This document shows, piece by piece, positions 1 to 11,461 of a stretch of DNA of 11,461 bases. The stretch is from a virus (lineage: Duplodnaviria > Heunggongvirae > Uroviricota > Caudoviricetes). The stretch lies in IMG/VR virus record IMGVR_UViG_2565956612_000010; one strand, written 5' to 3'. Each line of letters begins with the position of its first letter. The stretch's first letter is position 1. The notes beneath the pieces were generated by a model, which was not told the origin of the DNA, searched no databases, and was given only the letters and a program-made list of their open reading frames with translations. A program made the position numbers and the translations under genes.

Positions 1-141
1 CTACTGCTTACACTGTAAGAACGCCGCAAACTCCGCTCCCCAGAAGCTCATCCGTATTTCGCACAGCGAACCGTGCAGCATCCAGATGATGAGGATTGCC
101 GTCACGCAGAACGTGATGGCCGTAAGCGATTTTTGCGACAT
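1..141 (-). CDS. hok: Hok/Gef-family type I toxin, 46-aa small membrane peptide
   Basis: Reverse complement of 1..141 gives ATG..TAG encoding MSQKSLTAITFCVTAILIIWMLHGSLCEIRMSFWGAEFAAFLQCKQ. It has an N-terminal hydrophobic helix and the SLCE(I/L) and E-x-AAF-L-x-C-K motifs recalled from HokA/HokC/HokE. Below the 60-aa cutoff of the ORF track. Confidence 0.7.
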   Translation of the reverse strand: MSQKSLTAITFCVTAILIIWMLHGSLCEIRMSFWGAEFAAFLQCKQ

Positions 142-271
142 AGCACTTGCTCCTTTTCCGGAGAGGCGCTAACCTTTCACTTGTCAAGGTAATGCGGTTA
201 GGGCCTCGGTTAAACAGAGATGTTTTCCGGGGCCTTTCCACATCTGGCCTTCGGGTATTCCCTCCGACCAT
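8..271 (-). CDS. Putative mok-like reading frame overlapping hok in another frame
   Basis: 87-aa ORF with an ATG at 269..271 covers the whole hok ORF in a different frame, as mok does in hok/sok loci. The protein has no recognisable fold; the call rests on position only. Confidence 0.3.
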   Translation of the reverse strand: MVGGNTRRPDVERPRKTSLFNRGPNRITLTSERLAPLRKRSKCYVAKIAYGHHVLRDGNPHHLDAARFAVRNTDELLGSGVCGVLTV

Positions 272-331
272 CAGCCGAAAGGCACCCGCGCGTAATCTAT
301 CGCTTTTTTGTTACTCCGGCAATTCTGCCTG

Positions 332-592
332 TTAATTCTGAGGTAAAGGCAAACTCATCTGATTGTTTCCCCTGTGTGAAGCTGGCAGCTCATGCCACGG
401 GATACCATCTGAAGAGTGAACGCCGGAGGCGTGTTTCGATGTGAATTTATGGAAAGCTTCCAGTGTTGAGAAGCATACACCGCATTCCAGGTTGTTACAC
501 TGGTAATACTTTTGCCGCACGGTGTTTGAATCATTTTCCGGACGACTGGTGCGGATACGGGCAGATGCGCCACAAAGCGGACAACGGAACAT
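332..592 (-). CDS. ogr: Ogr/Delta-family zinc-finger late-gene transcriptional activator
   Basis: N-terminus MFRCPLCGASARIRTSR...YYQCNNLECGVCFST matches P2 Ogr (MFHCPLC...RTSR...YHQCQNVNCSATF) with four Cys in C-x2-C...C-x4-C spacing. Strong SD AAGGGAGG sits 5 nt upstream of the ATG on the - strand (593..605). The C-terminus is longer than P2 Ogr. Confidence 0.8.
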   Translation of the reverse strand: MFRCPLCGASARIRTSRPENDSNTVRQKYYQCNNLECGVCFSTLEAFHKFTSKHASGVHSSDGIPWHELPASHRGNNQMSLPLPQN

Positions 593-793
593 AGCGACCT
601 CCCTTAACGTGGTGCTGGTTCTATTTTAAGTTGTACTGGCTCAGACTCCAACAGCCACTCCGTCTTGAGCAAAAAGTTAGCGCAGGAGTGCATGTTTAAA
701 CCTAATTGCTTTAAATATAGTGATTCGGATAACCAGATGACTTGTGTTTATATATGATAACGGTAAAAATCTACTCTCTATGAGAATGTTGAT

Positions 794-1954
794 GTGAAAA
801 TGGTCACTATGAAGATAACTAAGACAAATTTTGGTATAACTATTAATGATACTTTAATAACGGATTTTCGCGATGTAGTTAATGAAAGAGATTTTGTTTA
901 TAGTTACTTCATAAACAGAAATGGTAAAAATCAGTTCAGCCCTATTTGTTCATGCATGGATTGGATTACTGTTTCTGTACGCTATCTTATGAACATCCCT
1001 GAAATATCTGAAGACATTGATATTAAAACTATGCAGATTTATACTATTATATCATCAATCGATATAATAGTGGAAGCGGTGCGGCAACTCCATCGTATTA
1101 TTGAAAGTGACAATAATTTTATGAAATGGCCTTTTAAAGGCTCTGTTGATATTTTTAAGGATAAAATACATTATCTTTCGCATGAGGATGATGACTCTTA
1201 TTTTAAGAGTATTCGCGCTATTTTTGGTGCTCACCCTACGAATCTTAAAAATAACCACGGGGAGAGATTATTTGCGAGCTGGCCTCATTTTTATGCACTT
1301 AATAATAATGATTTTACTATAAGTCTTTATAATAACAAACCCGGTGTGGATGATATTATTTTTGGTATTAAATTTAACGAGCTTATCTCATATGTTGAAA
1401 GTAGGTATAAATATCTAGAAAAACTAATGGACTCTATAGTGGTAATTCGTAACAACCATTACGATGTTTTGTCCGCGCAAGTTATATCATCCACCGATAA
1501 CATTTATGATGAGTTGAGGCTGCTTCTTTCAGAAGTCGCTATACGAGGTAATAATGATTATTACCGAATGCAATTAGAAGAGTTAATTCATTTGTTTGAT
1601 GGTTGTGTTAAAGAGAAGCATCTTCAAGATGAAGTAAATGAGTTTTTGAGTAAACTCTATCCGATCGTTTTAGAGATTAGAAATAATCTTCAGAAAATGA
1701 ATGTTGAAGATTTAACAACTACTTGTGATGTGATTATTTCGAGGCTTCCTACAGGTGAATTAAGTTATGTTCTTCAGAAGATGTTTTCTTGTCTCCACTC
1801 AGATAGGGATGATCCATTGAAGGATTATTACCTTGATACTTTAAATAAATATACTGAAGGTTGGTATAATTTTTGCTCTGCAGATAACGATAGTACAACC
1901 TTGCTAAAACTTAGAATGATGCTGTATCGGTATCATCAGCAAAAACTTGATTAA
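794..1954 (+). CDS. Hypothetical protein; AT-rich orphan accessory gene (moron), candidate anti-phage defence or abortive-infection protein, family unassigned
   Basis: Long uninterrupted ORF of 386 aa in a region visibly far more AT-rich than the flanking phage genes. N/I/K/D/Y-rich protein, no Walker A motif seen. Track start is GTG at 794; in-frame ATGs at 800 and 809 are alternative starts; no strong SD. It is antisense to the flanking ogr and D. Confidence 0.6.
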   Translation: MKMVTMKITKTNFGITINDTLITDFRDVVNERDFVYSYFINRNGKNQFSPICSCMDWITVSVRYLMNIPEISEDIDIKTMQIYTIISSIDIIVEAVRQLHRIIESDNNFMKWPFKGSVDIFKDKIHYLSHEDDDSYFKSIRAIFGAHPTNLKNNHGERLFASWPHFYALNNNDFTISLYNNKPGVDDIIFGIKFNELISYVESRYKYLEKLMDSIVVIRNNHYDVLSAQVISSTDNIYDELRLLLSEVAIRGNNDYYRMQLEELIHLFDGCVKEKHLQDEVNEFLSKLYPIVLEIRNNLQKMNVEDLTTTCDVIISRLPTGELSYVLQKMFSCLHSDRDDPLKDYYLDTLNKYTEGWYNFCSADNDSTTLLKLRMMLYRYHQQKLD

Positions 1955-2030
1955 CGATGAGAAATAATGTCAGCGGATTTTTTATAATCTTGCATATCAA
2001 TTCATCGTTAGGTTTATGATTCCTATTTCG

Positions 2031-2069
2031 GGCACAGAGCAAACAGGTATATTATGTTGGCTCTGTGCC
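2031..2069. other. Perfect 10-bp inverted repeat (GGCACAGAGC / GCTCTGTGCC) with 19-nt loop between convergent genes
   Basis: Read directly from the sequence; lies between the stop of the AT-rich ORF (1954) and the stop of D (2085). No U-run follows on either strand, so it is not a classical intrinsic terminator. Confidence 0.4.
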
Positions 2070-2084
2070 GTATCTTCCCACCAT

Positions 2085-3191
2085 TTAGGTCTGCGCAATC
2101 CATTCAGGGATTTTTGTTTCAAGTTCAAGCTGCGTGGTAAAGCCGCTGTTATCAATGGTGTGCTCGGCTTTTGCAATAATCCAGTCCTGATTATCAATCT
2201 CGCTTTTAAATCCTGTTACCGTGCCATGCATTTCGGGGTAGAGTTCTGCGCGTCCACGTGCCAGTGTGATGGAGAACGCTGCGGCTCCGCGTTGTAGCTG
2301 CTGCCACTTTGCCGCCGCTGCGCGTCTTGCTGCCTGCTCGTTCTGATAAGTCTTGCGTAACACAAACACATTGCCTTCCGCGCCTTCCATATAATCACCT
2401 TCACGGCTGCTGCTTTTCTCCTTTTTGGGTTTTGGCGGTTTACGGCGTTTTACGCTGACTTTTTTCTTTTTCCCGTAATTAAGATCAAGCCAGTAGGCGC
2501 GTACCCCCGTATACGCCTCGCGGTCAGCAATACGGAACTGATGGCGATCGCTGCTGCTGCGTGTAATGGCGAACGAGGGCAACGGCTGGCCCTGTGCGTT
2601 CACGCCACCACCTGGCATGATGAATAACAGATTGCCGCTTTTTACCGTGGTGATTGCGCCCAGCATTTCCGCCATGCGCGTAAGGAAGGACATGTCGCTT
2701 TCTTCGGTCTGGTCGGCGTGGTCGATTTCAATATCCATCAGCATTTCGCTGATTTGCGGTTTCAGGCCGTATCGGTGAGCAATTGCAGACACCACGCGTT
2801 CAACGGTCACATCATGCCAGGATACTTCGCGCTTGACGTTAAATTCATCCCGAAAATCTGCGCTTCTGGCTGAAATGGTCAGTCTGTCGGGCGGTCCTTC
2901 ATGAGCAATTTCATCAACAATGTAAGTGCCTTTTTCTGTCAGCGGTTCTCCTTTCCAGCCAATGAGAACCGTCAGGCGCGCGCCCCGTGGCGGTAGCTGC
3001 AACTGACCATCCGCATCATCCAGCGTGATGGTGAGCTGGTCCGCTTCAAATCCCCGGTTGTCGGTCAGTGACAGGCTCATCAGGCGCTCTGCCACGCCGG
3101 ACAGCGTTTCCCCCTCCGCGAGAATATCAAAATCCGGCATTTTCACGGGGTCTGTGCCCTGACTGAGCAATTGCATGGTGGTGTCGGTCAT
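2085..3191 (-). CDS. D: P2 gpD-like tail protein (late control gene D family)
   Basis: Matches P2 gpD at LTDNRGFEADQL, SWHD, FLTR and the lysine-rich KKKVSVKRRKPPKPKKEK stretch. Start placed at the internal ATG 3189..3191 (MTDTTMQ...) because it follows the strong SD GGGAGGG; the upstream ATG at 3210..3212 is the track start. Confidence 0.88.
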   Translation of the reverse strand: MTDTTMQLLSQGTDPVKMPDFDILAEGETLSGVAERLMSLSLTDNRGFEADQLTITLDDADGQLQLPPRGARLTVLIGWKGEPLTEKGTYIVDEIAHEGPPDRLTISARSADFRDEFNVKREVSWHDVTVERVVSAIAHRYGLKPQISEMLMDIEIDHADQTEESDMSFLTRMAEMLGAITTVKSGNLLFIMPGGGVNAQGQPLPSFAITRSSSDRHQFRIADREAYTGVRAYWLDLNYGKKKKVSVKRRKPPKPKKEKSSSREGDYMEGAEGNVFVLRKTYQNEQAARRAAAAKWQQLQRGAAAFSITLARGRAELYPEMHGTVTGFKSEIDNQDWIIAKAEHTIDNSGFTTQLELETKIPEWIAQT

Positions 3192-3347
3192 CTTTCCCTC
3201 CCTGTGCAGCATGGTCGCATGTGCGTGCGGAGGGGGTTACTGCTTTTTGTTGTCGCCGTGGCGGGAGAACGGCGCAGGGGTGAGATTACGCGCGTGGTGG
3301 GTGATGATTGTTGCCGAATCATTTAACGGATACAAGGGGCTGAAGCT

Positions 3348-4532
3348 ATGAGTGAAACTCGTTTTCATGGTGCCCGTGTTACGGAAAGTACCGACCTGGT
3401 AACAGCGATTAATGATGTTGATTCCAGTGTTATCGGTATCGTGGCAACGGCGGATGATGCGGATGCGGAGCTGTTCCCGCTGAACAAGCCCACACTGCTG
3501 ACCCGCGTCAATGACGTGCTGGGAAAATGCGGAACAACGGGGACGCTTTATCGTGCGCTTAAGGCCATCGCAGACCAGGTGAGCACAAAGGTGATCGTCG
3601 TTCGCGTGGCTGAACACAAAGAAGAAGACGGAAAAACGCAGGATCAACTGGTTATCGGTGGTTCTGAATCTGACGGCAGCTATACGGGGATGTATGCGCT
3701 GCTTGTTGCAGAGCAGGATGAAAGCATCGGATACCGTCCGCGTATTCTGGCCGCGCCGGAGCTGGACACGGAGGCGGTAACAAAATCCCTGTGCGTGATT
3801 GCGGGTAAACTGCGCGCGTTTGTGTATGCCTCATGTCACGGCTGTAACACGATGGCTGAGGCGATTACCTACCGCCAGAAATTCAACGAACGTGAGGTGA
3901 TGCTCTTATGGCCGGACTTCATCGCCTACAACCCGAAAAGTGGCAAAAACGAAACGTTCCCCGCGCCTGCCTATGCGTGCGGCCTTCGTGCGTACATTGA
4001 CCATGAGCAGGGCTGGCACAAATCGCTGTCCAACGTTCCGGTTAAAAATGTGCTGGGGATGTCCAGGCATGTGTTCTGGTCGTTGCAGGCCGAAGACAGT
4101 GATGCCAACAGCCTCAACAACAAAGAAATCACGACCATTATTCGTCGCAACGGGTTCCGCTTCTGGGGCAACCGCACCCCGGAAACGAACGCCTACATCT
4201 TTGAGGTGTATACCCGAACCGCACAGGTGCTGGCTGATTCAATTGCGGAAGCGCAGTTTGAAACCATCGACAGTCCACTGACGCCTGCGAACGTGAAAGA
4301 TGTTATCAGTGCCATCAGGGCAAAACTGGATTCACTGGTTACTGCCGGGAAACTGATTGGGGCGTCGTGCTGGTATGACGTGGTGGATAACGGCACCACG
4401 AATTTACGTCAGGGGCGCGTGCGTATTCGCTACAAATATACGCCTGTTCCCCCGCTGGAAGACATGGAGCTTTACCAGTCGTTTACTGATGAATTCTTTG
4501 GTCCCGCATTTGCGGTGCTGGGAGGTGCCTGA
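3348..4532 (+). CDS. FI: Contractile tail sheath protein (P2 gpFI family)
   Basis: 394 aa; conserved blocks shared with P2 FI (DADAE-FPLNKP, QGWHK-LSNV, IRR-GFRFWGNRT, YTPVPPLE). SD AAGGGG 8 nt upstream. Its stop overlaps the FII start (TGATG). Confidence 0.95.
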   Translation: MSETRFHGARVTESTDLVTAINDVDSSVIGIVATADDADAELFPLNKPTLLTRVNDVLGKCGTTGTLYRALKAIADQVSTKVIVVRVAEHKEEDGKTQDQLVIGGSESDGSYTGMYALLVAEQDESIGYRPRILAAPELDTEAVTKSLCVIAGKLRAFVYASCHGCNTMAEAITYRQKFNEREVMLLWPDFIAYNPKSGKNETFPAPAYACGLRAYIDHEQGWHKSLSNVPVKNVLGMSRHVFWSLQAEDSDANSLNNKEITTIIRRNGFRFWGNRTPETNAYIFEVYTRTAQVLADSIAEAQFETIDSPLTPANVKDVISAIRAKLDSLVTAGKLIGASCWYDVVDNGTTNLRQGRVRIRYKYTPVPPLEDMELYQSFTDEFFGPAFAVLGGA

Positions 4533-5044
4533 TGGCTGTACCAAAACATCTTCGCTTTTTTACGCTGTTTGTGGATGGTGAAAACGAAGTGGGTAAGGTG
4601 ACGTCTGTCACTCTACCTAAGCTGACGCGCAAAACCGACAGCTACCGGGGTGGTGGCATGATGGGTGCGGTAAGTATTGATCTCGGTCTGGACGACTCCG
4701 CGCTTGATGCGAGCTTTGTCATGGGGGGCGCAGTTCGTGAGCTGTTCCTTAAGTATGGCGGCACGATTGACGGCACGCTGCTGCGTTTTGCGGGTGAATA
4801 CTACACCGATGCAGAAAGCGACCTGTATGAAGTCGAAATGCGCGGACGTGTGACGGAAATTGATATGGGGGAAGCCAAACAGGGCGAAGCCACATCACAC
4901 ACTTACGCCATTAAAAACACCTACTACAAGCTGAGTGTTAACGATCGCCCGTTGTGGGAGATTGACCTGCTGAACTTCATTTACCGGAAGGACGGCAAGG
5001 ACATTGTGCCCGATCGCATCCGTTCCGCGCTCGGGCTTGGCTGA
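4532..5044 (+). CDS. FII: Tail tube protein (P2 gpFII family)
   Basis: 170 aa; SVTLPKLTRK, YRGGG and VEMRGR blocks match P2 FII; translationally coupled to FI. Confidence 0.95.
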   Translation: MAVPKHLRFFTLFVDGENEVGKVTSVTLPKLTRKTDSYRGGGMMGAVSIDLGLDDSALDASFVMGGAVRELFLKYGGTIDGTLLRFAGEYYTDAESDLYEVEMRGRVTEIDMGEAKQGEATSHTYAIKNTYYKLSVNDRPLWEIDLLNFIYRKDGKDIVPDRIRSALGLG

Positions 5045-5098
5045 TAAGTAATATGCAGGCGGCGCAGTGCGTCGCCTCTGACTGAAAGGAGTTTCCTG

Positions 5099-5464
5099 AT
5101 GAAAGAGACGAAAAACATCGATACCGAAAACACGGTAGTTACTGACACTGTGAAAGAAACCAGTGAGCGTGGCGTAAAACTTACCCAACCAATTGAGCGA
5201 GGCGGCGAAAAAATCACGTATGTGGAGATCACCGGGGCTATTGAGCAGGCTGGATCTCTGCGAGATTTGTCGCTGTCTGATGTGCTGAATCTGAAAGCGG
5301 AATCCATGTTTACGCTGCTGTCACGCGTGACATCACCGCGACTGGATGAAGTGACGATCAAAAAAATGGCATCCCGTGACTTTATTCAGTTATGTGTGGT
5401 TGCCGTAAATTTTTTGAGCGGTGCGGACTCTGGCGGGAAGAACGAACAGGCGACGGAAGCCTGA
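5099..5464 (+). CDS. E: Tail assembly chaperone gpE (zero-frame product)
   Basis: 121-aa ORF directly after FII with SD AAGGAG (5086..5091); it contains a slippery heptamer near its 3' end and is followed by an overlapping -1 frame ORF, the P2 E/E' arrangement. Confidence 0.85.
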   Translation: MKETKNIDTENTVVTDTVKETSERGVKLTQPIERGGEKITYVEITGAIEQAGSLRDLSLSDVLNLKAESMFTLLSRVTSPRLDEVTIKKMASRDFIQLCVVAVNFLSGADSGGKNEQATEA

Positions 5465-5628
5465 TCACGGTTGTGTGCTTTGAGCACATAGAAGACTTTG
5501 TGGCGGATATTGCCGCCATTTTTAACTGGTCGCCCGCCGAAATCTTCATGATGACGCCCGGCGAAGTGGTTAGCTGGCGTGAGCGGGCGGCACTTCGCAG
5601 CGGGAATGCAGACAATGAAGACTCTTGA
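5099..5628 (+). CDS. gpE+E' frameshift fusion chaperone (E codons 1-106, then 70 codons of the -1 frame; about 176 aa)
   Basis: Deduced from the slippery site and the open -1 frame; analogous to P2 E/E' and lambda G/GT. Its 3' end overlaps the start of T. Confidence 0.6.
5410..5416 (+). other. Programmed -1 ribosomal frameshift slippery site T_TTT_TTG
   Basis: Heptamer TTTTTTG in the E zero frame (codons TTT 5411..5413, TTG 5414..5416). The -1 frame opens at 5416 and runs to a stop at 5626..5628, the same frame as track ORF 5392..5628. Confidence 0.65.
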
Positions 5629-8422
5629 TATCCGGGTCGCTTTCAGCGCCGTTGACAGGCTGACCCGGCCTGCCGAAAACGCCCGCCGCCTGATGGGGCA
5701 GTTTGGTGACTCCATCCAGCGAACGCAGGGGGCGATCAAAAATCTCGAGCGTCAGGCGCGATCATTTGAGCGCGCCCGCGACGCTGTCAGTAAAGCGGAT
5801 GCGGGTATCGTGAAAGCACGACGCCAGCTTAACGCCCTTAATCAGTTACAACGCACGGGTACAGTGCTCAGCGAAAAACAACAAAAGCTGATGCAGCAGT
5901 TAAGCACCCGGCTTGAACGCCTGAATGAATCGCGCACACGGGAAATTCAGAAAATGCGGGAGCTTGGCGGAGAGCTGATACGCCACGGCATTTCCCTGAC
6001 AGGCAGCGATAACACCATCCAGCAGGCCATCAGACGCACCGAACAGTACAACAACCAGCTTGAACGCGAACGGCAGGCGCTTGCGCGTGTAACGCGGGCG
6101 CGTGAGCGGTATTCGCGCGCGCAGGAAACCGCGGGAAAACTGAAAACAGGTGGTGCGCTGGCAATTGGTGCGGCAGCGGCGGGCGGCTATGCTGCCGGGC
6201 GTTTTTTGCAGCCTGCGATCGGGTTCGGCAAAGAGATGTCCCGCGTTCAGGCACTGACGCGAATCGACAAAAACAGCCCGCAGTTTAAGGCGCTGCGTGA
6301 GCAGGCGTTAAAACTTGGCTCTGAAACACAGTTTACTGCGAGTGATGCCGCCAGTGGGCAGAGCTTTCTGGCAATGGCTGGTTTTACTCCGCAGGCCATT
6401 CAGGCCGCATTGCCCGGTGTTCTTAATATGGCGCTGGCAGGTGGCGTCGAACTCGGCGAGACGGCGGATATAGGCTCCAATATCCTCACACAGTTCAACC
6501 TGACAGCCGATCAAATGGACCGGGTGGGCGATACGCTGACAGCAGCATTTACCCGGACCAATACTGATTTACGCGCGCTGGGCGAAACCATGAAGTATAC
6601 CGGTCCGGTTGCCGCAAAACTTGGTATCAGTCTTGAAGAAGCGGCGGCCATGGCCGGGATGCTTGCCAATAATGGTCTTCGCGGAAGCGATGCTGGCACG
6701 GCCATGCGCGCAAGTCTGTCCCGCCTTGCATCACCGCCAAAAGCTGCGGCTGATGCACTGAAAGAGCTGGGGGTGTCAGTTGCTGACGCCAGAGGCAAAA
6801 TGCGCCCGATGGAGGATGTGCTGCTTGATCTCTATAAGGCGACACAAAAATACGGACAGGTGGACCAGGTCTCCTTCTTCAAGGACATCGCCGGAGAAGA
6901 GGCGTTCGTTGGTTTGCAGACGCTTGTTGCGGCGGCTGGTTCAGGAGAGCTGCAAAAACTGACCAGAGAACTGCAGGGGGCAAGGGGAGAGGCCGATCGC
7001 GTTGCAAAAGTAATGGCCGATAATCTTGATGGGGACCTGAAAAATCTCGACAGCGCATGGGAAGGTCTTCGTATTCGCATCAGTGATCTGGTTGACGGTC
7101 CGCTGCGTTCTGTCACGCAGTGGCTCACGCGGGTGCTTGAAAAAATCACCTCGCTGGCGCAGGCCCATCCGGTACTGACGCGCCAGCTACTGATAGCAGG
7201 CGGTGCGTTGCTGGCAATGACTGCAACGATTGGCTCGTTGTCGCTGGTTATTGGGGTGCTTTACGGAAAGCTGGCCACCCTGCGTCTTGGTTTTGACATT
7301 CTTACCCGGTCAATGAATGTCGTCCGGGTGTTGCCTGCGCTGTGGGGAATGCTGACGGGTTCTGTTTCTTTGCTGGGAGGCGCTATCGGGGCGCTGTTCA
7401 GTCCGGTTGGATTGATTGCTGCTGCGTTTGTGGCTGCGGCGGTTCTCATCTGGAAATACTGGGAACCCATTAAGGCGTTTTATGCCGGGGTGTTCAACGG
7501 GATTATGGAAAGGCTGACCCCGTTGCGCGAAACCTTTGAACGGTTTGGTCCTGTTTTTGACGCAATCGGAAGCGGGATCAGCCAGGTGTTTAACTGGTTT
7601 AAATCGCTGCTGTCACCGATGGAGTCCAGCAAGGAAACGCTGGATAAATGTACCAGTGCTGGCGAGATATTCGGTAACGTTCTTGGCGGTGCGTTACAAC
7701 TTGTTCTGACACCTGCAAAAATGCTACTGGATACGCTGGCGTGGATACTTGAAAAACTTGGCGTCCTTCCGGATGAAGCGGAAAGGGCACGCAAGGAAAT
7801 CGAAGACGCACAGCGTGCGGTCATTCTTCAGGACAAGGTTGCCTTACTTCAGGGGGACCTGGCGAAAATCAATCCGCCGAAGCCTGTGGAAAATGGCAAT
7901 GGCACCGGAGGTGATAAACCCAAAGACAACAAACCGCTCACAGACAGCAATACCGGGACGCTACGCAGACTCAGCAAAATTGCTGATAACACAGGTAAGC
8001 TGGTTGATGAGACGAAAAAACGCATTGGCCCCGGCGATATTGTCTTTAAGAACCTGCCCCGCGCACTTGCTGTTCGTGGGGAGTGGCAGGAGCGGAAGAT
8101 TGCGCAGGTCAGTAAGCCTGCCCCCGCAATTAATATCACACCCGTGGTCCCGGCTCCGCTGCCTCCGGCGCTGGTCCCTGTTGTTGCGGCCAGCTCCCGC
8201 CCGGTGGCGGAGGCCATACGATCTCCAGTGGCATCAGTTCCTGTAACTTCCCGTAACCGGGAGCCTGTTGCCTCCGGATTTGGTGGTGAAATTCATGTTC
8301 ATCTGCATAACGTTGTTACGCAGAATCCCCGCGAACTGGCGAAACTGGTCGGTGAAATGGTCAGGGCAGAAATGGAACGGCGCGCCCGTGCCGGGCGTGG
8401 CAGTTTTTACGATAAAGATTGA
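5615..8422 (+). CDS. T: Tail tape measure protein (P2 gpT family)
   Basis: About 935-aa ORF with a coiled-coil-rich N-terminal half, hydrophobic glycine-rich central segments and a Pro/Ala-rich C-terminus, in the tape-measure position between E/E' and U. Start is ambiguous: track GTG at 5579, ATG at 5606, and ATG at 5615, which has GGGA 9 nt upstream. Confidence 0.9.
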   Translation: MKTLDIRVAFSAVDRLTRPAENARRLMGQFGDSIQRTQGAIKNLERQARSFERARDAVSKADAGIVKARRQLNALNQLQRTGTVLSEKQQKLMQQLSTRLERLNESRTREIQKMRELGGELIRHGISLTGSDNTIQQAIRRTEQYNNQLERERQALARVTRARERYSRAQETAGKLKTGGALAIGAAAAGGYAAGRFLQPAIGFGKEMSRVQALTRIDKNSPQFKALREQALKLGSETQFTASDAASGQSFLAMAGFTPQAIQAALPGVLNMALAGGVELGETADIGSNILTQFNLTADQMDRVGDTLTAAFTRTNTDLRALGETMKYTGPVAAKLGISLEEAAAMAGMLANNGLRGSDAGTAMRASLSRLASPPKAAADALKELGVSVADARGKMRPMEDVLLDLYKATQKYGQVDQVSFFKDIAGEEAFVGLQTLVAAAGSGELQKLTRELQGARGEADRVAKVMADNLDGDLKNLDSAWEGLRIRISDLVDGPLRSVTQWLTRVLEKITSLAQAHPVLTRQLLIAGGALLAMTATIGSLSLVIGVLYGKLATLRLGFDILTRSMNVVRVLPALWGMLTGSVSLLGGAIGALFSPVGLIAAAFVAAAVLIWKYWEPIKAFYAGVFNGIMERLTPLRETFERFGPVFDAIGSGISQVFNWFKSLLSPMESSKETLDKCTSAGEIFGNVLGGALQLVLTPAKMLLDTLAWILEKLGVLPDEAERARKEIEDAQRAVILQDKVALLQGDLAKINPPKPVENGNGTGGDKPKDNKPLTDSNTGTLRRLSKIADNTGKLVDETKKRIGPGDIVFKNLPRALAVRGEWQERKIAQVSKPAPAINITPVVPAPLPPALVPVVAASSRPVAEAIRSPVASVPVTSRNREPVASGFGGEIHVHLHNVVTQNPRELAKLVGEMVRAEMERRARAGRGSFYDKD

Positions 8423-8434
8423 GGAGTCATGGCC

Positions 8435-8923
8435 ATGATGATGATCTACGGCATGTTTGTTTTTGAGCTGCGCACGCTGCCGCATCAGCAGTTACAGCAA
8501 AACAAAAGCTGGCGGCATGTGAAAAATGAACGCGTTAACCGTTCAGCAGGCTGGCAGTATATCGGCGCAGGTGATGATCGCATTGTGCTTTCCGGCGTGC
8601 TTTATCCTGAAATTACAGGTGGCGAAGTGTCGCTTTCGTTGCTGACCACGCAGGCATATACAGGACGCCCCTGGCCTCTGATTGATGGTGTCGGGCAGAT
8701 TTACGGCATGTATGTACTGACTGAAACGAATACGACCCGTTCCGAGTTTGATCGCTATGGTAAGGCGAAAAAGATAGAATTTTCACTGACTCTTGAACGC
8801 TGTGATGAGGATTTGCGGGAGCGCCTGCAATCCTCATCGTTCAGCGATATGCTGTCCGGCTTCAAAGATAAAGTGACATCATCTCTTAACAGCGCGGCCA
8901 GCTCCGTTAAAGGGCTGTTTTGA
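8435..8923 (+). CDS. U: Tail protein gpU
   Basis: MMMIYGMFVFELRTLPHQQLQ aligns with the P2 gpU N-terminus (MMMVLGLFVFQLKTLPYQQLQ). SD GAGGAG (8421..8426) lies 8 nt before the ATG at 8435; the track start at 8429 is too close to the SD. Confidence 0.9.
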   Translation: MMMIYGMFVFELRTLPHQQLQQNKSWRHVKNERVNRSAGWQYIGAGDDRIVLSGVLYPEITGGEVSLSLLTTQAYTGRPWPLIDGVGQIYGMYVLTETNTTRSEFDRYGKAKKIEFSLTLERCDEDLRERLQSSSFSDMLSGFKDKVTSSLNSAASSVKGLF

Positions 8924-8930
8924 TTAACGC

Positions 8931-8960
8931 AAAACCGCTAATGGTCAGATTAGCGGTTTT
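8931..8960. terminator. Putative bidirectional intrinsic terminator (12-bp perfect stem AAAACCGCTAAT / ATTAGCGGTTTT, 6-nt loop)
   Basis: Hairpin between convergent U (stop 8923) and the invertase (stop 8950..8952), flanked by T-rich and A-rich runs usable on both strands; the invertase stop codon lies inside the stem. Confidence 0.55.
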
Positions 8961-9549
8961 CATTTTCCTGAGTCTGCCTGGTTGTTTCTTCAGCCTGTAT
9001 ATCGCCTACAGGGTGATAACGATAAATCGTCGATATGCCGATGTCGTAAATGATCGCCAGTTGTTTCCTGTCATGACCGTTTTTAATCAGCCTCGCTATT
9101 TGCTCGTGTTGTTCTTTTGTCAACTTCGGGCGACGTCCGCCAATGCGTCCTTGTGCGCGTGCTGCTGCCAGCCCGGCCAGTGTACGCTCTACAATTAATT
9201 CACGTTCCATTTCGGCTAAAGCCCCCATGACGTGAAAAAAGAAACGCCCCATGGGTGTTGACGTGTCAATGCTGTCCGTCAGACTACGGAAATTAACACC
9301 TTTTTCCCGCAATTCCTCAATAAGCGTGATCAGGTGTTTCATACTTCTGCCCAGTCTGTCCAGCCTCCAGACAACCAGCGTATCTCCTTCTGATAGCGTT
9401 CTGAGCAGTTTTTTCAATCCCGGTCTGGTTGATTTCGTTCCGCTGATTTTATCTTCAAAAATCAGTTCACATCCTGCGCAGTTCAGTGCATTGCGTTGTA
9501 AATCCGTGTTCTGGTCGTTTGTTGACACACGAATATAGCCAATTTGCAT
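8950..9549 (-). CDS. Serine DNA invertase (Hin/Gin/Cin/Pin family)
   Basis: MQIGYIRVSTNDQNTDLQRNAL... has the catalytic Ser in the YIRVST motif, and the LVVWRLDRLGRS and DTSTPMGRFFFHVMGALAEMERELIVERT blocks are near-identical to Hin. Start at ATG 9547..9549 is preceded by SD AGAGGA; the 43-codon N-terminal extension in the track is an artefact. Confidence 0.93.
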   Translation of the reverse strand: MQIGYIRVSTNDQNTDLQRNALNCAGCELIFEDKISGTKSTRPGLKKLLRTLSEGDTLVVWRLDRLGRSMKHLITLIEELREKGVNFRSLTDSIDTSTPMGRFFFHVMGALAEMERELIVERTLAGLAAARAQGRIGGRRPKLTKEQHEQIARLIKNGHDRKQLAIIYDIGISTIYRYHPVGDIQAEETTRQTQENENR

Positions 9550-9603
9550 AAAAAACATCCTCTTTGTTTCGTGAAAAATACAGAGTTGGTATAGGTAGGG
9601 ATA

Positions 9604-9629
9604 AAAACGAAAACGTTGGTTTGGGGGAA
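9604..9629. other. Candidate 26-bp invertase crossover site, left (hix/gix/cix-like), core TT at 9616..9617
   Basis: AAAACGAAAACG-TT-GGTTTGGGGGAA. The inner half-site is the exact reverse complement of the inner half-site of the right-hand site; the ...AAACC-AA-GG... centre resembles hixL. Confidence 0.5.
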
Positions 9630-9838
9630 GGCTCTGCATTGCCTGTTGGTGTACCGGTTCCATGGCCCACCGCCACACCGCCAGCAGGCTGGTTACAGTG
9701 CAACGGAGCTACGTTCACCAAAGAACAATATCCTGTTCTGGCCAGAGCCTACCCGACCCTCCGTCTTCCCGATTTGCGCGGTGAGTTTATCCGTGGATGG
9801 GACGACGGGCGCAAGATTGACGAGGGGCGTAAGTTGCT
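9616..9838. repeat. Inverted repeat, left copy (about 220 bp), encoding the shared N-terminal part of the fibre-tip cassettes
   Basis: Aligned by eye to the reverse complement of 11010..11232; includes a 94-bp perfectly identical core at 9721..9814. Both copies encode GLGEGSALPVGVPVPWPTATPPAGWL...RGEFIRGWDDGRK. Confidence 0.85.
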
Positions 9839-10094
9839 TTCATGGCAGAAAGGTACACTGGTCGGCGGTCATGACGATAACGATTCTGCGCTTGATATCT
9901 CGTACATGAGTAACGGAAATAATATTGACTATGGCGGCGATAAGGTGTTTGCGGGGAATTACCGTAGCGATTATTTGTGGTACGCAATGCTGGGTGGAAC
10001 AAACAGTCGCGCAAAAGCCGAATTAAACGGAGCATTCTTTAACATAACCCGCCCCCGCAATATCGCGTTTAACTATATCGTGAGGGCGGCGTGA
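9618..10094 (+). CDS. Silent alternative tail-fibre C-terminal cassette (start-less; expressed only after inversion fuses it to H)
   Basis: Frame is open from the crossover core to a stop at 10092..10094; there is no ATG or SD, and the track 'start' at 9564 is TTG inside the invertase leader. The encoded tip shares the IR-encoded N-terminal block and the C-terminal RPR-IA-NYIVRA motif with the H tip but differs in between. Confidence 0.75.
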   Translation, partial: GLGEGSALPVGVPVPWPTATPPAGWLQCNGATFTKEQYPVLARAYPTLRLPDLRGEFIRGWDDGRKIDEGRKLLSWQKGTLVGGHDDNDSALDISYMSNGNNIDYGGDKVFAGNYRSDYLWYAMLGGTNSRAKAELNGAFFNITRPRNIAFNYIVRAA

Positions 10095-10100
10095 TACCGT

Positions 10101-10715
10101 TCAACTGGCAAGTGCCAGTGGCGCTTCCGGCCAGCTGATTTCAGGTGCCTTGCTGATATCCAGTGCGTTCAGCTCGTCGATATAATCCAGCACGGCGTTC
10201 AGTTTTGCCGTTTCTTCTGGTTTCAGACTGCGACCTGCCCGCAGTTTGAGGTTGATGGGGTCGATGGACTTCATCGCCTGATCCACCCGTTTCTGGCGTT
10301 GCAGTCTGGCAGTCTCCAGTTCTGCGGCTCGCTGCCGTTCAGTATCGGTTACCCACGCCTCACCGTTCCAGGTATCCCATGGCGTGGCTGGCTGTTTTGT
10401 GGTGGTGTCCGCCGGGTAATCACCCGGTTGGGTAATCAGAACAGGGTTACCGTTCTCCGTGCTGTATACCGTCTCGCCGCGGTGATCAGGCACATGCTCC
10501 CACCCGTTCAGCGTGGCAGTCCGGCAAACCACGTAACCCGAAATTGCCTCCGGCGGTGCATCGGCGCACGAATGTGCCGGAGTACCCACCCCAAGGGCGA
10601 GATACTCCACAGAGGATGAGGTGTATTCCCGGGTTTCCTCGTCATAGTGATATACAGTGATATCGCCCGCTACAGTGGCGATACCGTTTTCATCCAGAAC
10701 TGCAGTGTTACTCAT
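10101..10715 (-). CDS. Tail fibre assembly chaperone (Tfa, P2 gpG / Mu U-like)
   Basis: 204-aa ORF directly downstream of H with stop/start overlap TAATG at 10713..10717; composition and position are typical of Tfa proteins. Confidence 0.85.
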   Translation of the reverse strand: MSNTAVLDENGIATVAGDITVYHYDEETREYTSSSVEYLALGVGTPAHSCADAPPEAISGYVVCRTATLNGWEHVPDHRGETVYSTENGNPVLITQPGDYPADTTTKQPATPWDTWNGEAWVTDTERQRAAELETARLQRQKRVDQAMKSIDPINLKLRAGRSLKPEETAKLNAVLDYIDELNALDISKAPEISWPEAPLALAS

Positions 10716-11461
10716 TAAACTGCCCTCACAATGTAATTAAGTGCAATGCTACGGGGTCTGACAGTGATACCCTTCGCATACCCGCTTCTGATAGAGGTCA
10801 GAATAGTAGCCTGCATACCATTGTCTGACATTGTTATGACAGGATCGCTGAATGTTGTCCCGTCCGGCATTTTAAAGCTGCCCTCACGAAGGTCTGTAAT
10901 GGAATCTTCATTGTTGAATCCCATGCCGACTATCCCCGAGGTTCCCGTAGTGTCCTGGTTATAATAATCCAGCATTGCTGTTCTTAACAGCGTTGCCCCT
11001 TGTGCGGACAGCAACTTACGTCCTGTATCAACTTTGCGCCCGTCGTCCCATCCACGGATAAACTCACCGCGCAAATCGGGAAGACGGAGGGTCGGGTAGG
11101 CTCTGGCCAGAACAGGATATTGTTCTTTTGCAAAGGTGCGCCCGTCGCACTTTAACCAGCCTGCTGGCGGTGTGGCGGTGGGCCATGGAACAGGCACACC
11201 AACAGGCAGTGCAGAGCCTTCCCCCAAACCAAGGTAATTGAGGACATCTTTTATACTGCCCTTAGCGATAATAGCGCGACCAATAGCTGTAAGGGTTGCC
11301 AGCGCTGCGCGGTCTGCTCCGGTAAAATAAGGCAACCGATCTGCTGCAGTGGCAAGTCCTGCCAGAGCAGTGAGCGTGGCATCTGCCGGTTGTTTTCCGT
11401 TTGCCAGATCGTATGCAGCCTTGACCGCTTTCGGTGTGGCGGCCAGTATTTCAGACGTGCT
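10715..11461 (-). CDS. H: Tail fibre protein H, 3' portion (N-terminus beyond the window end)
   Basis: The reading frame stays open to the window edge (...STSEILAATPKAVKAAYDLANGKQPADATLTALAGLATAADRLPYFTGADR...); the track start at 11335 is TTG and artefactual. The C-terminal tip lies inside the invertible segment. Confidence 0.88.
   Translation of the reverse strand, partial: STSEILAATPKAVKAAYDLANGKQPADATLTALAGLATAADRLPYFTGADRAALATLTAIGRAIIAKGSIKDVLNYLGLGEGSALPVGVPVPWPTATPPAGWLKCDGRTFAKEQYPVLARAYPTLRLPDLRGEFIRGWDDGRKVDTGRKLLSAQGATLLRTAMLDYYNQDTTGTSGIVGMGFNNEDSITDLREGSFKMPDGTTFSDPVITMSDNGMQATILTSIRSGYAKGITVRPRSIALNYIVRAV
11010..11232. repeat. Inverted repeat, right copy (within H)
   Basis: Reverse complement aligns with 9616..9838; perfectly identical core at about 11034..11127. 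Confidence 0.85.
11219..11244. other. Candidate 26-bp invertase crossover site, right, core AA at 11231..11232
   Basis: TTCCCCCAAACC-AA-GGTAATTGAGGA. The inner half is identical to the reverse complement of the left site's inner half; the outer half belongs to the constant part of H. Confidence 0.5.

Follow-up and report, generated by a model that had tools for sequence, protein, structure and literature searches.

Divergent D and FI genes in a P88-like prophage: a fixed lineage arrangement with a predicted two-way Ogr promoter

The annotated P2 record places H, G, Z/fun, FI, FII, E, E', T, U, D and ogr on one strand, in agreement with the order given in the initial annotation of the DNA described here. 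In P2, the F operon (FI FII E E' T U D) is expressed from pF. The annotated strands of the isolated phages P88, SEN4 and 3LV2017 show D and FI diverging from each other instead. P88, phiSM and PP4/KSP20 are active phages (PMC5285337, PMC6456863, PMC9826266). The divergent gene order is already visible in public annotations of P88-, SEN4- and 3LV2017-like phages; we found no statement of this gene order in the literature searched on P88-like and P2-related phages.

We analyzed an 11,461-nucleotide stretch of viral DNA (the window). Judged from these 11.5 kb, the window most probably represents the right arm of a prophage of the P88 type (Xuanwuvirus, Peduoviridae). Positions 2-9549, with the exception of a gap at a cargo gene, are 93.2% identical to P88 and 95.3% identical to 500465-2, and the tail module thus has the high nucleotide identity expected of a Xuanwuvirus member. 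The P88 annotation and a tblastn map show the same order in P88, with ogr and D on the minus strand, FI, FII, E, E', T and U on the plus strand and an invertase gene on the minus strand. The window is collinear with the phages phiSM, 500465-2, P884B11, PhiR44_2 and Chuche. A prophage in E. coli M1/5 is 99.6% identical to the window, and the remainder of this near-identical prophage is a P2-type genome. The open reading frame list and PHROG and Pfam matches bear out the strand pattern first described, with D and ogr opposed to FI-U:

332-592, minus strand: ogr, late activator type with an ogr/Delta-like zinc finger (annotation in the E. coli M1/5 prophage)
2085-3191, minus strand: D, tail/baseplate hub, Phage_GPD (PHROG 52 at 3.6e-164; Pfam Phage_GPD)
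3192-3347, no strand: divergent D/FI spacer of 156 bp, inferred two-way late promoter region (conserved blocks in an alignment of 43 distinct relatives)
3348-4532, plus strand: FI, tail sheath (PHROG 23 at 1.7e-125; Pfam sheath domains)
4532-5044, plus strand: FII, tail tube (Pfam Phage_tube at 7.5e-47)
5099-5628, plus strand: E and E', tail assembly chaperones (PHROG 103; E' of the GpE family in the M1/5 annotation)
5615-8422, plus strand: T, tape measure (PHROG 28 at 2e-216; Pfam PhageMin_Tail)
8429-8923, plus strand: U, tail protein and final gene of the plus-strand block (Pfam Phage_P2_GpU at 7.7e-39)
8950-9549, minus strand: Hin/Gin-type DNA invertase adjoining the block (PHROG 125 at 1.4e-99; Pfam Resolvase and HTH_7)
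10101-10715, minus strand: Tfa
from 10715, minus strand: C-terminus of H

The ogr product is 36% identical to P2 Ogr (tblastn). The start-codon column of D (3189-3191) is conserved in the alignment of 43 relatives. E stops at 5464 and E' at 5628, with a P2-type slippery TTTTTTG at 5410-5416 as the site of the -1 frameshift, and the ATG of T at 5615 overlaps the 3' end of E'. A low-GC cargo gene of 1.2 kb sits between D and ogr in the window; the protein it encodes (794-1954) has no Pfam, PHROG or PADLOC match.

We examined the distribution of the divergent layout and found it in every one of about 125 related loci from genomes and IMG/VR that contain both D and FI, with D identities of 60-98%. 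All 43 genome loci, from about 20 Enterobacterales genera, are divergent, as are 79 of 80 IMG/VR contigs. Of 5426 complete E. coli genomes, 1109, or approximately a fifth, carry the native D|FI junction (2692-3847) as one contiguous stretch. Co-linear order was found only in P2, Fels-2 and Cartapus, whose D identity is 49-53%. On these sequence comparisons, the divergent order is a fixed arrangement of a large, old P2-related sub-lineage in Enterobacterales, whose members have D at least 60% identical to that of the window.

The initial annotation described D and FI as diverging across 156 bp, which is confirmed at 3192-3347, and proposed that flipping approximately 3192-8949 would restore P2 order. 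The flipped order is indeed a known one, found in Fels-2 and Cartapus, with the invertase in the G/FI gap. Two origins had been offered, a stable lineage arrangement or a recent inversion, and the first holds while the second fails given the distribution of the layout in phages, genera and E. coli. The same annotation reasoned that finding this layout in all related functional phages would make it an ordinary lineage variant, and we found it in P88, SEN4, 3LV2017, prophages and IMG/VR contigs. A recent inversion, perhaps through illegitimate recombination, in this strain or within a narrow group of E. coli would be compatible with a block that is cleanly inverted relative to P2 and Fels-2 with every gene intact. 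We consider it very improbable, because the layout persists down to 60% D identity, across about 20 genera and three named phage genera, and because the spacer has conserved, adapted promoter elements. The only reason to suspect an assembly error at a junction would be the unusual order relative to P2, and its probability is negligible. Such an error is excluded by the unbroken junction in the 1109 complete E. coli genomes and in phage genomes that were sequenced independently.

The invertase gene adjoins the FI-U block, and a hairpin between this gene and U has AAAACC/GGTTTT in its arms. Both features would fit an active large invertible segment that is flipped by the Hin/Gin-type invertase, with the hairpin as a degenerate crossover site. 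A hix-pattern search found no hix-like sites in 3192-3347 or 8924-8960, so crossover sites are not present at both ends of the block. Across the window, the search returned 5 matches against 5.6 expected, a chance level, and is informative only because two matches coincide with the ends of a 229-nt inverted repeat. Hix-like sites lie only at 9611-9622 and 11226-11237, on either side of the tail-fibre tip cassette. A search for inverted repeats flanking 3192-8949 gave nothing beyond weak, chance-like pairs across the block. These pairs, for example 2794-2820 with 8509-8535 at 74%, were rejected as recombination sites. The P2-like flipped D|U junction was absent from all 1387 E. coli genomes matching either half, compared with 1109 carrying the native junction, and close relatives thus do not contain both orientations. 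Nor is the layout tied to the presence of an invertase, since many relatives that lack the gene, including most from other genera, keep the divergent order, and the hairpins after U in these relatives are of unrelated sequence. An active segment is highly improbable on this evidence. The invertase is a neighbour of the FI-U block, not its cause.

The hairpin itself was located with a terminator scan:

8931-8960, no strand: hairpin AAAACCGCTAAT-GGTCAG-ATTAGCGGTTTT, between the converging U and invertase genes

Its 12-bp stem has predicted energies of -15.8 kcal/mol on the plus strand and -16.9 kcal/mol on the minus strand (z -2.7 and -4.0), and the stop codon of the invertase (8950-8952) falls in the right arm. 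The hairpin is flanked by TTTT on both sides, giving each strand the predicted stem and T run of a two-way intrinsic terminator, with T runs that are short (4 nt) and a stem that has only 4 G-C pairs. Most relatives have a hairpin after U that is unrelated in sequence, including relatives without the invertase. We conclude that this element looks like a terminator common to the converging U and invertase genes. Thus, the hairpin first noted at this junction exists, but the relationship to hix suggested for it is not supported, as hix-like sites only bound the tip cassette.

We then considered how D and FI-U might be expressed from the spacer. The Ogr box consensus is TGT-N12-ACA (PMC3931495). 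An exact search of the whole window for this consensus gave one match, at 9565-9582, which is at chance level (2.8 expected), and none in the D/FI spacer. It took the alignment of relatives to reveal the spacer box, and this alignment supports the following elements:

3211-3219, minus strand: predicted D promoter, extended -10 TGcGACCAT, predicted start near 3204
3249-3270, no strand: Ogr-type box GTTGT-N12-AGAAC (TGT 3251-3253, AGA 3266-3268, centre 3259.5)
3303-3308, plus strand: predicted pF, -10 GATGAT, predicted start near 3315

The box has one mismatch to the consensus (AGA). TGT-N12-A[CG]A is present in 40 of the 43 relatives, many of which have exact ACA at the aligned position. No variation occurs in GTTGT and almost none at A3266 and C3270. 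P2 has a matching box at pO/pP, pF and pV, as does this prophage type in its O/P spacer. Apart from the single mismatch, the dyad is placed as expected for an Ogr-type late promoter, with its centre some 55 nt upstream of the predicted start, and the -10 hexamer spacing is that of mapped P2 late promoters. On the FI side, A3304, A3307 and T3308 are invariant, and the hexamer begins 52 nt after the TGT (position p) in nearly all relatives; a start placed at p+64 coincides with those annotated for P2 pO, pF and pV. On the D side, the TG, A2 and T6 are invariant or nearly so, and the element is fixed 40-41 nt from the TGT in about 30 relatives. The D-side hexamer GACCAT, at p-35, has the offset of the P2 pP hexamer, and the corresponding rule reproduces the annotated pP start, so that all four annotated P2 late start sites are recovered with these offsets. 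Conservation in the spacer is highest in the columns of the box and both -10 elements, and the spacing between them (+52 and -40/-41 nt from the TGT) is invariant although the start codons lie at varying distances. This geometry recurs in the O/P spacer of the same type of prophage, and P2 pF is without a leftward -10. As would be expected where promoters depend on an activator and lack a -35 element, a generic sigma-70 scan detected none in the D/FI spacer, a result that does not positively support the model. The D leader is predicted to be short, at about 13 nt. Two further conserved blocks, GCGCGCG (3221-3229) and CGAACTCA (3314-3321), fall outside what the promoter model explains.

From these elements we infer that one Ogr activator site would drive both D and FI-U, and such a shared site would explain how the split operon works. 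The separate transcription of D foreseen in the initial annotation is supported by this comparative evidence from predicted elements. The order could be fixed in the same way while D is driven by an Ogr-independent promoter or by another activator site, such as the GCGCGCG block. This alternative would give a role to the conserved GC-rich sequence just upstream of the D-side -10, and the extended -10 (TGn) could work without an activator; the consensus mismatch in the box also points in this direction. We consider it unlikely, because the -10 spacing is an invariant mirror image around the box and equals the mapped P2 pP/pO spacing, and D, as a late structural gene, is required alongside FI-U.

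Taken together, we assign a probability of roughly 90% to the reading that the order was fixed in a P88-like sub-lineage through one ancient inversion and no longer flips, with an inferred two-way Ogr promoter between D and FI. A single ancient inversion of the pF-FI...U segment would have broken up an ancestral F operon that ran FI FII E E' T U D. The spacer has one dyad-type Ogr box with a -10 element at equal distance on each side, and these equal distances would allow Ogr-recruited RNA polymerase to start both ways, near 3204 for leftward transcription of D and near 3315 for rightward transcription of FI-U. FI-U transcription would then end at the hairpin just 3' of U, which would also serve the converging invertase gene. 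It is reasonably probable that the dyad box became a two-way late promoter once pF-FI...U was inverted beside D, and that the leftward -10 was gained or fixed afterward. If so, the symmetry of the activator site let an essential operon be split with co-regulation kept, a natural case of this kind, and the spacer would join pP/pO as a second and independent case of a two-way late promoter.

The gene order itself has little significance, as it is standard for P88-like, SEN4-like and 3LV2017-like phages. P2 is not a safe synteny reference for every P2-related prophage, and annotators should not flag the divergent D|FI layout as a rearrangement or misassembly. A clear and testable prediction follows from the D/FI spacer, a second Ogr-dependent promoter working in both directions from starts near 3204 and 3315, which could interest students of P2-type late-gene activation.

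We compared the locus with described systems. The P2 F operon has the same gene set, the same E/E' slippery site and, upstream of FI, an Ogr-type box equally spaced from its -10, with protein identities of only 32-49%. D overlaps U as the final gene of the P2 operon, whereas in the window it lies on the opposite strand beside the pF box and has its own predicted -10. The P2 pP/pO pair likewise has one dyad box between two outward -10 hexamers at TGT offsets of -35 and +52, and a pair of this type has predicted start sites about 111 nt apart. P2 pP/pO was mapped experimentally and drives terminase/portal genes on one side and head genes on the other, whereas the predicted pair in the window would drive D and FI-U; the D side also has a TG extension, unlike P2 pP. 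In Fels-2 and Escherichia phage Cartapus, the invertase and invertible tail-fibre cassette occupy the position relative to H/G that they have in the window. Their FI...U-D-ogr genes are co-linear, and the window has their layout with pF-FI...U flipped. Salmonella phage SEN4 (Senquatrovirus) and Klebsiella phage 3LV2017 (Reginaelenavirus) share the divergent D|FI arrangement, but their D is only 63-69% identical, and tail-fibre genes converge directly on U with no invertase after it. P88 and the other Xuanwuvirus phages (500465-2, P884B11, phiSM, PhiR44_2 and Chuche) match the window in genes, strands and D/FI spacer and in having the invertase after U, with 92-95% identity over the module, and P88 has a 157-bp spacer. 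The window differs from these phages in its 1.2-kb low-GC cargo gene between D and ogr, and from P88 in a shorter tail-fibre tip cassette with one Tfa gene in place of two.

The gene calls of the initial annotation were confirmed by an ORF list and family scans, which place the following genes in the window.

Genes of the window (coordinates, strand, identity)
1-141, minus, hok/gef-type gene at the left edge (Hok/Gef-family toxin)
332-592, minus, ogr
2085-3191, minus, D
3348-4532, plus, FI
4532-5044, plus, FII
5099-5464, plus, E
5615-8422, plus, T
8429-8923, plus, U
8950-9549, minus, Hin/Gin-type invertase
10101-10715, minus, tail-fibre assembly gene (Tfa)
from 10715, minus, tail fibre H, C-terminal part

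A P2-type slippery TTTTTTG lies within E (5410-5416), and the E' frame stops at 5628, overlapping the start of T. The divergent D and FI genes are separated by 156 bp, and the stop codons of the convergent U and invertase genes lie 26 bp apart. The toxin gene is located at the end of the prophage, which adjoins ihfA in Escherichia coli M1/5, and about 300 bp at the left edge share 79-83% identity with many Stx-converting phages.

We compared this layout to those of known phages. The P2 record lists H, G, Z/fun, FI, FII, E/E', T, U, D and ogr on one strand throughout, and one pF start site is annotated as serving "FI, FII, E, E', T, U, D". Fels-2 and phage Cartapus share the P2 order, and in both the G/FI gap is occupied by an invertible tail-fibre cassette and an invertase. 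The inversion of the FI-U block relative to P2, noted initially, is therefore real, and these three gene orders bear out the accompanying statement that flipping approximately 3192-8949 would recreate a known order and put the invertase in the Z/fun slot.

We found the same divergent layout throughout the relatives of this prophage. The window is 92-95% identical to P88-group phages (genus Xuanwuvirus) and 99.6% identical to the M1/5 prophage, and the strands annotated in P88 match those in the window. With the D protein as query, we collected 47 loci from bacterial assemblies (one genome per species), including Salmonella, Citrobacter, Enterobacter, Klebsiella, Serratia, Erwinia, Pantoea, Pectobacterium, Brenneria, Edwardsiella and Symbiopectobacterium, along with 80 IMG/VR viral contigs, and placed tail genes on all of them by tblastn. 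U, T, E, FII and FI lay on one strand and D and ogr on the other in 43/43 genome loci with both D and FI and in 79 of the 80 contigs, the last being too short to tell. D identity to the window ranged from 98% down to 60% among these mapped relatives. Deposited phage genomes showed a bimodal distribution of D identity, with 49 records at or above 62% and 481 below 60%. SEN4 (Senquatrovirus, D 63%) and 3LV2017 (Reginaelenavirus, D 69%) are divergent, whereas Cartapus (53%), Fels-2 (53%) and P2 (49%) are co-linear. Judged from gene order, the spread of the layout across this identity range and the bimodal phage identities indicate that the block inversion is old and marks a whole Peduoviridae sub-lineage, which contains the active phages P88, phiSM and PP4/KSP20 (PMC5285337, PMC6456863, PMC9826266).

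Two Firmicutes-labelled loci, L007 (Vagococcus sp. WN89Y, with the entire tail module) and L048 (a Planococcaceae MAG), have a D gene with 97-98% identity to the window prophage, most likely through contamination of those assemblies. The phage records NC_049344 (520873) and NC_049341 (503458) have tail modules broken by IS100 (IS21-family) in the tape measure or sheath region and are probably defective prophages.

The FI-U arrangement is neither a recent inversion, an artefact nor an active switch. The initial annotation had left room for a recent event or an assembly error. The first is ruled out by a stable layout that spans many genera down to 60% D identity, and the second by a 1156-bp query across D/FI, which was contiguous in 1109/5426 complete E. 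coli genomes. An artificial P2-like junction, in which the 5' portion of D runs into reverse-complemented U, was contiguous in 0 of the 1387 E. coli genomes matching either query half. An inverted-repeat search found none flanking the block, hix-like sites occur only at 9611-9622 and 11226-11237, and many relatives with identical layout lack the invertase. To the extent that sequence data allow, these results rule out flipping of FI-U by the invertase.

The hix-like sites form the outer ends of a different element. The true invertible segment is 9611-11237, bounded by the 229-nt inverted-repeat arms of the tail-fibre tip cassette (9613-9841 and 11007-11235, 90% complementary) and found in the opposite orientation in the M1/5 prophage. 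It holds a single Tfa gene, compared with two in P88, so the alternative H tip (9564-10094, plus strand) lacks a co-oriented chaperone gene.

The arms of the hairpin between U and the invertase (8931-8960) had been noted to resemble hix half-site ends, at a spacing wrong for a crossover site. Relatives carry hairpins with quite different sequences after the U stop codon, and the hairpin does not fit a crossover relic. With a 12-bp stem, a 6-nt loop, four T on each strand and folding energies of -15.8 (plus) and -16.9 kcal/mol (minus), it fits a putative terminator of the FI-U unit common to the converging invertase, whose stop codon lies in the right arm.

A 386-aa ORF (794-1954, plus strand) lies between D and ogr, with a GC content of ~31-32% against ~55% around it and no Pfam, PHROG or PADLOC match. 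The distance from D to ogr is just ~45-55 bp in most relatives, and other E. coli prophages hold different genes here, such as one for a DUF3800 protein. Among E. coli members, the gap therefore appears to be a variable slot for cargo. A hairpin at 2031-2070 (GGCACAGAGC...GCTCTGTGCC), where the cargo ORF and D converge, is likely a terminator of both.

For 43 distinct relatives, we aligned the 200 nt preceding FI and profiled the information in each column. Among the best-conserved elements were GTTGT (3249-3253) and A.A.C (3266-3270), together TGT-N12-AGA/ACA. The published P2 late-promoter consensus is TGT-N12-ACA (PMC3931495); the window box reads AGA, one mismatch. The others were xAxxAT on the right (GATGAT, 3303-3308) and TGnxAxxAT on the minus strand (3219-3211, TGCGACCAT). 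Among relatives the right hexamer invariably begins 52 nt past the first T of TGT and the left element 40-41 nt before it, unlike the variable distances to the start codons. Both hexamers therefore start 43.5 nt from the dyad centre, in mirror image. This geometry recurs in the O/P spacer of the M1/5 prophage. Immediately upstream of the predicted D-side -10 is a conserved GCGCGCG-like block (3221-3229), and a comparable one is found ahead of the P-side -10 in an O/P spacer from this type of prophage (L002:34826-34836). At or just past the predicted pF start, nearly all relatives keep a CGAACTCA block (3314-3321, CCGAATCA in the window). The sequence at the mapped pF start of P2 is CCACTCA.

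In P2, one activator site is common to the divergent pP and pO promoters, whose start sites are 111 nt apart. A rule placing starts at p+64 rightward and p-47 leftward, where p is the first T of TGT, returned pO and pP exactly (3127 and 3016), pF at 5626 (annotated 5627-5629) and pV at 10307 (annotated 10308). Applied to the box in the window, the rule predicts starts near 3315 for pF and 3204 for D, giving D a leader of ~13 nt with a GGGAGGG ribosome-binding site. The left side of P2 pF reads CCTGCC, with no -10-like hexamer. The inversion may have brought the symmetric pF activator box beside D, and a leftward -10 would then have completed a second two-way late promoter. On this sequence-based model, the split operon is probably run by one Ogr-type box common to D and FI-U.

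The papers that full-text searches returned on P88, phiSM, SEN4/5, PP4/KSP20, P2-like diversity and P2 hotspots leave this gene order uncommented. Rearranged late operons are on record in other P2-like phages, Smp131 among them. Public annotations already show the divergent layout, which is the fixed and standard order of genes in a widespread phage lineage, and the predicted shared-box two-way promoter for D and FI-U is the only modestly new element.
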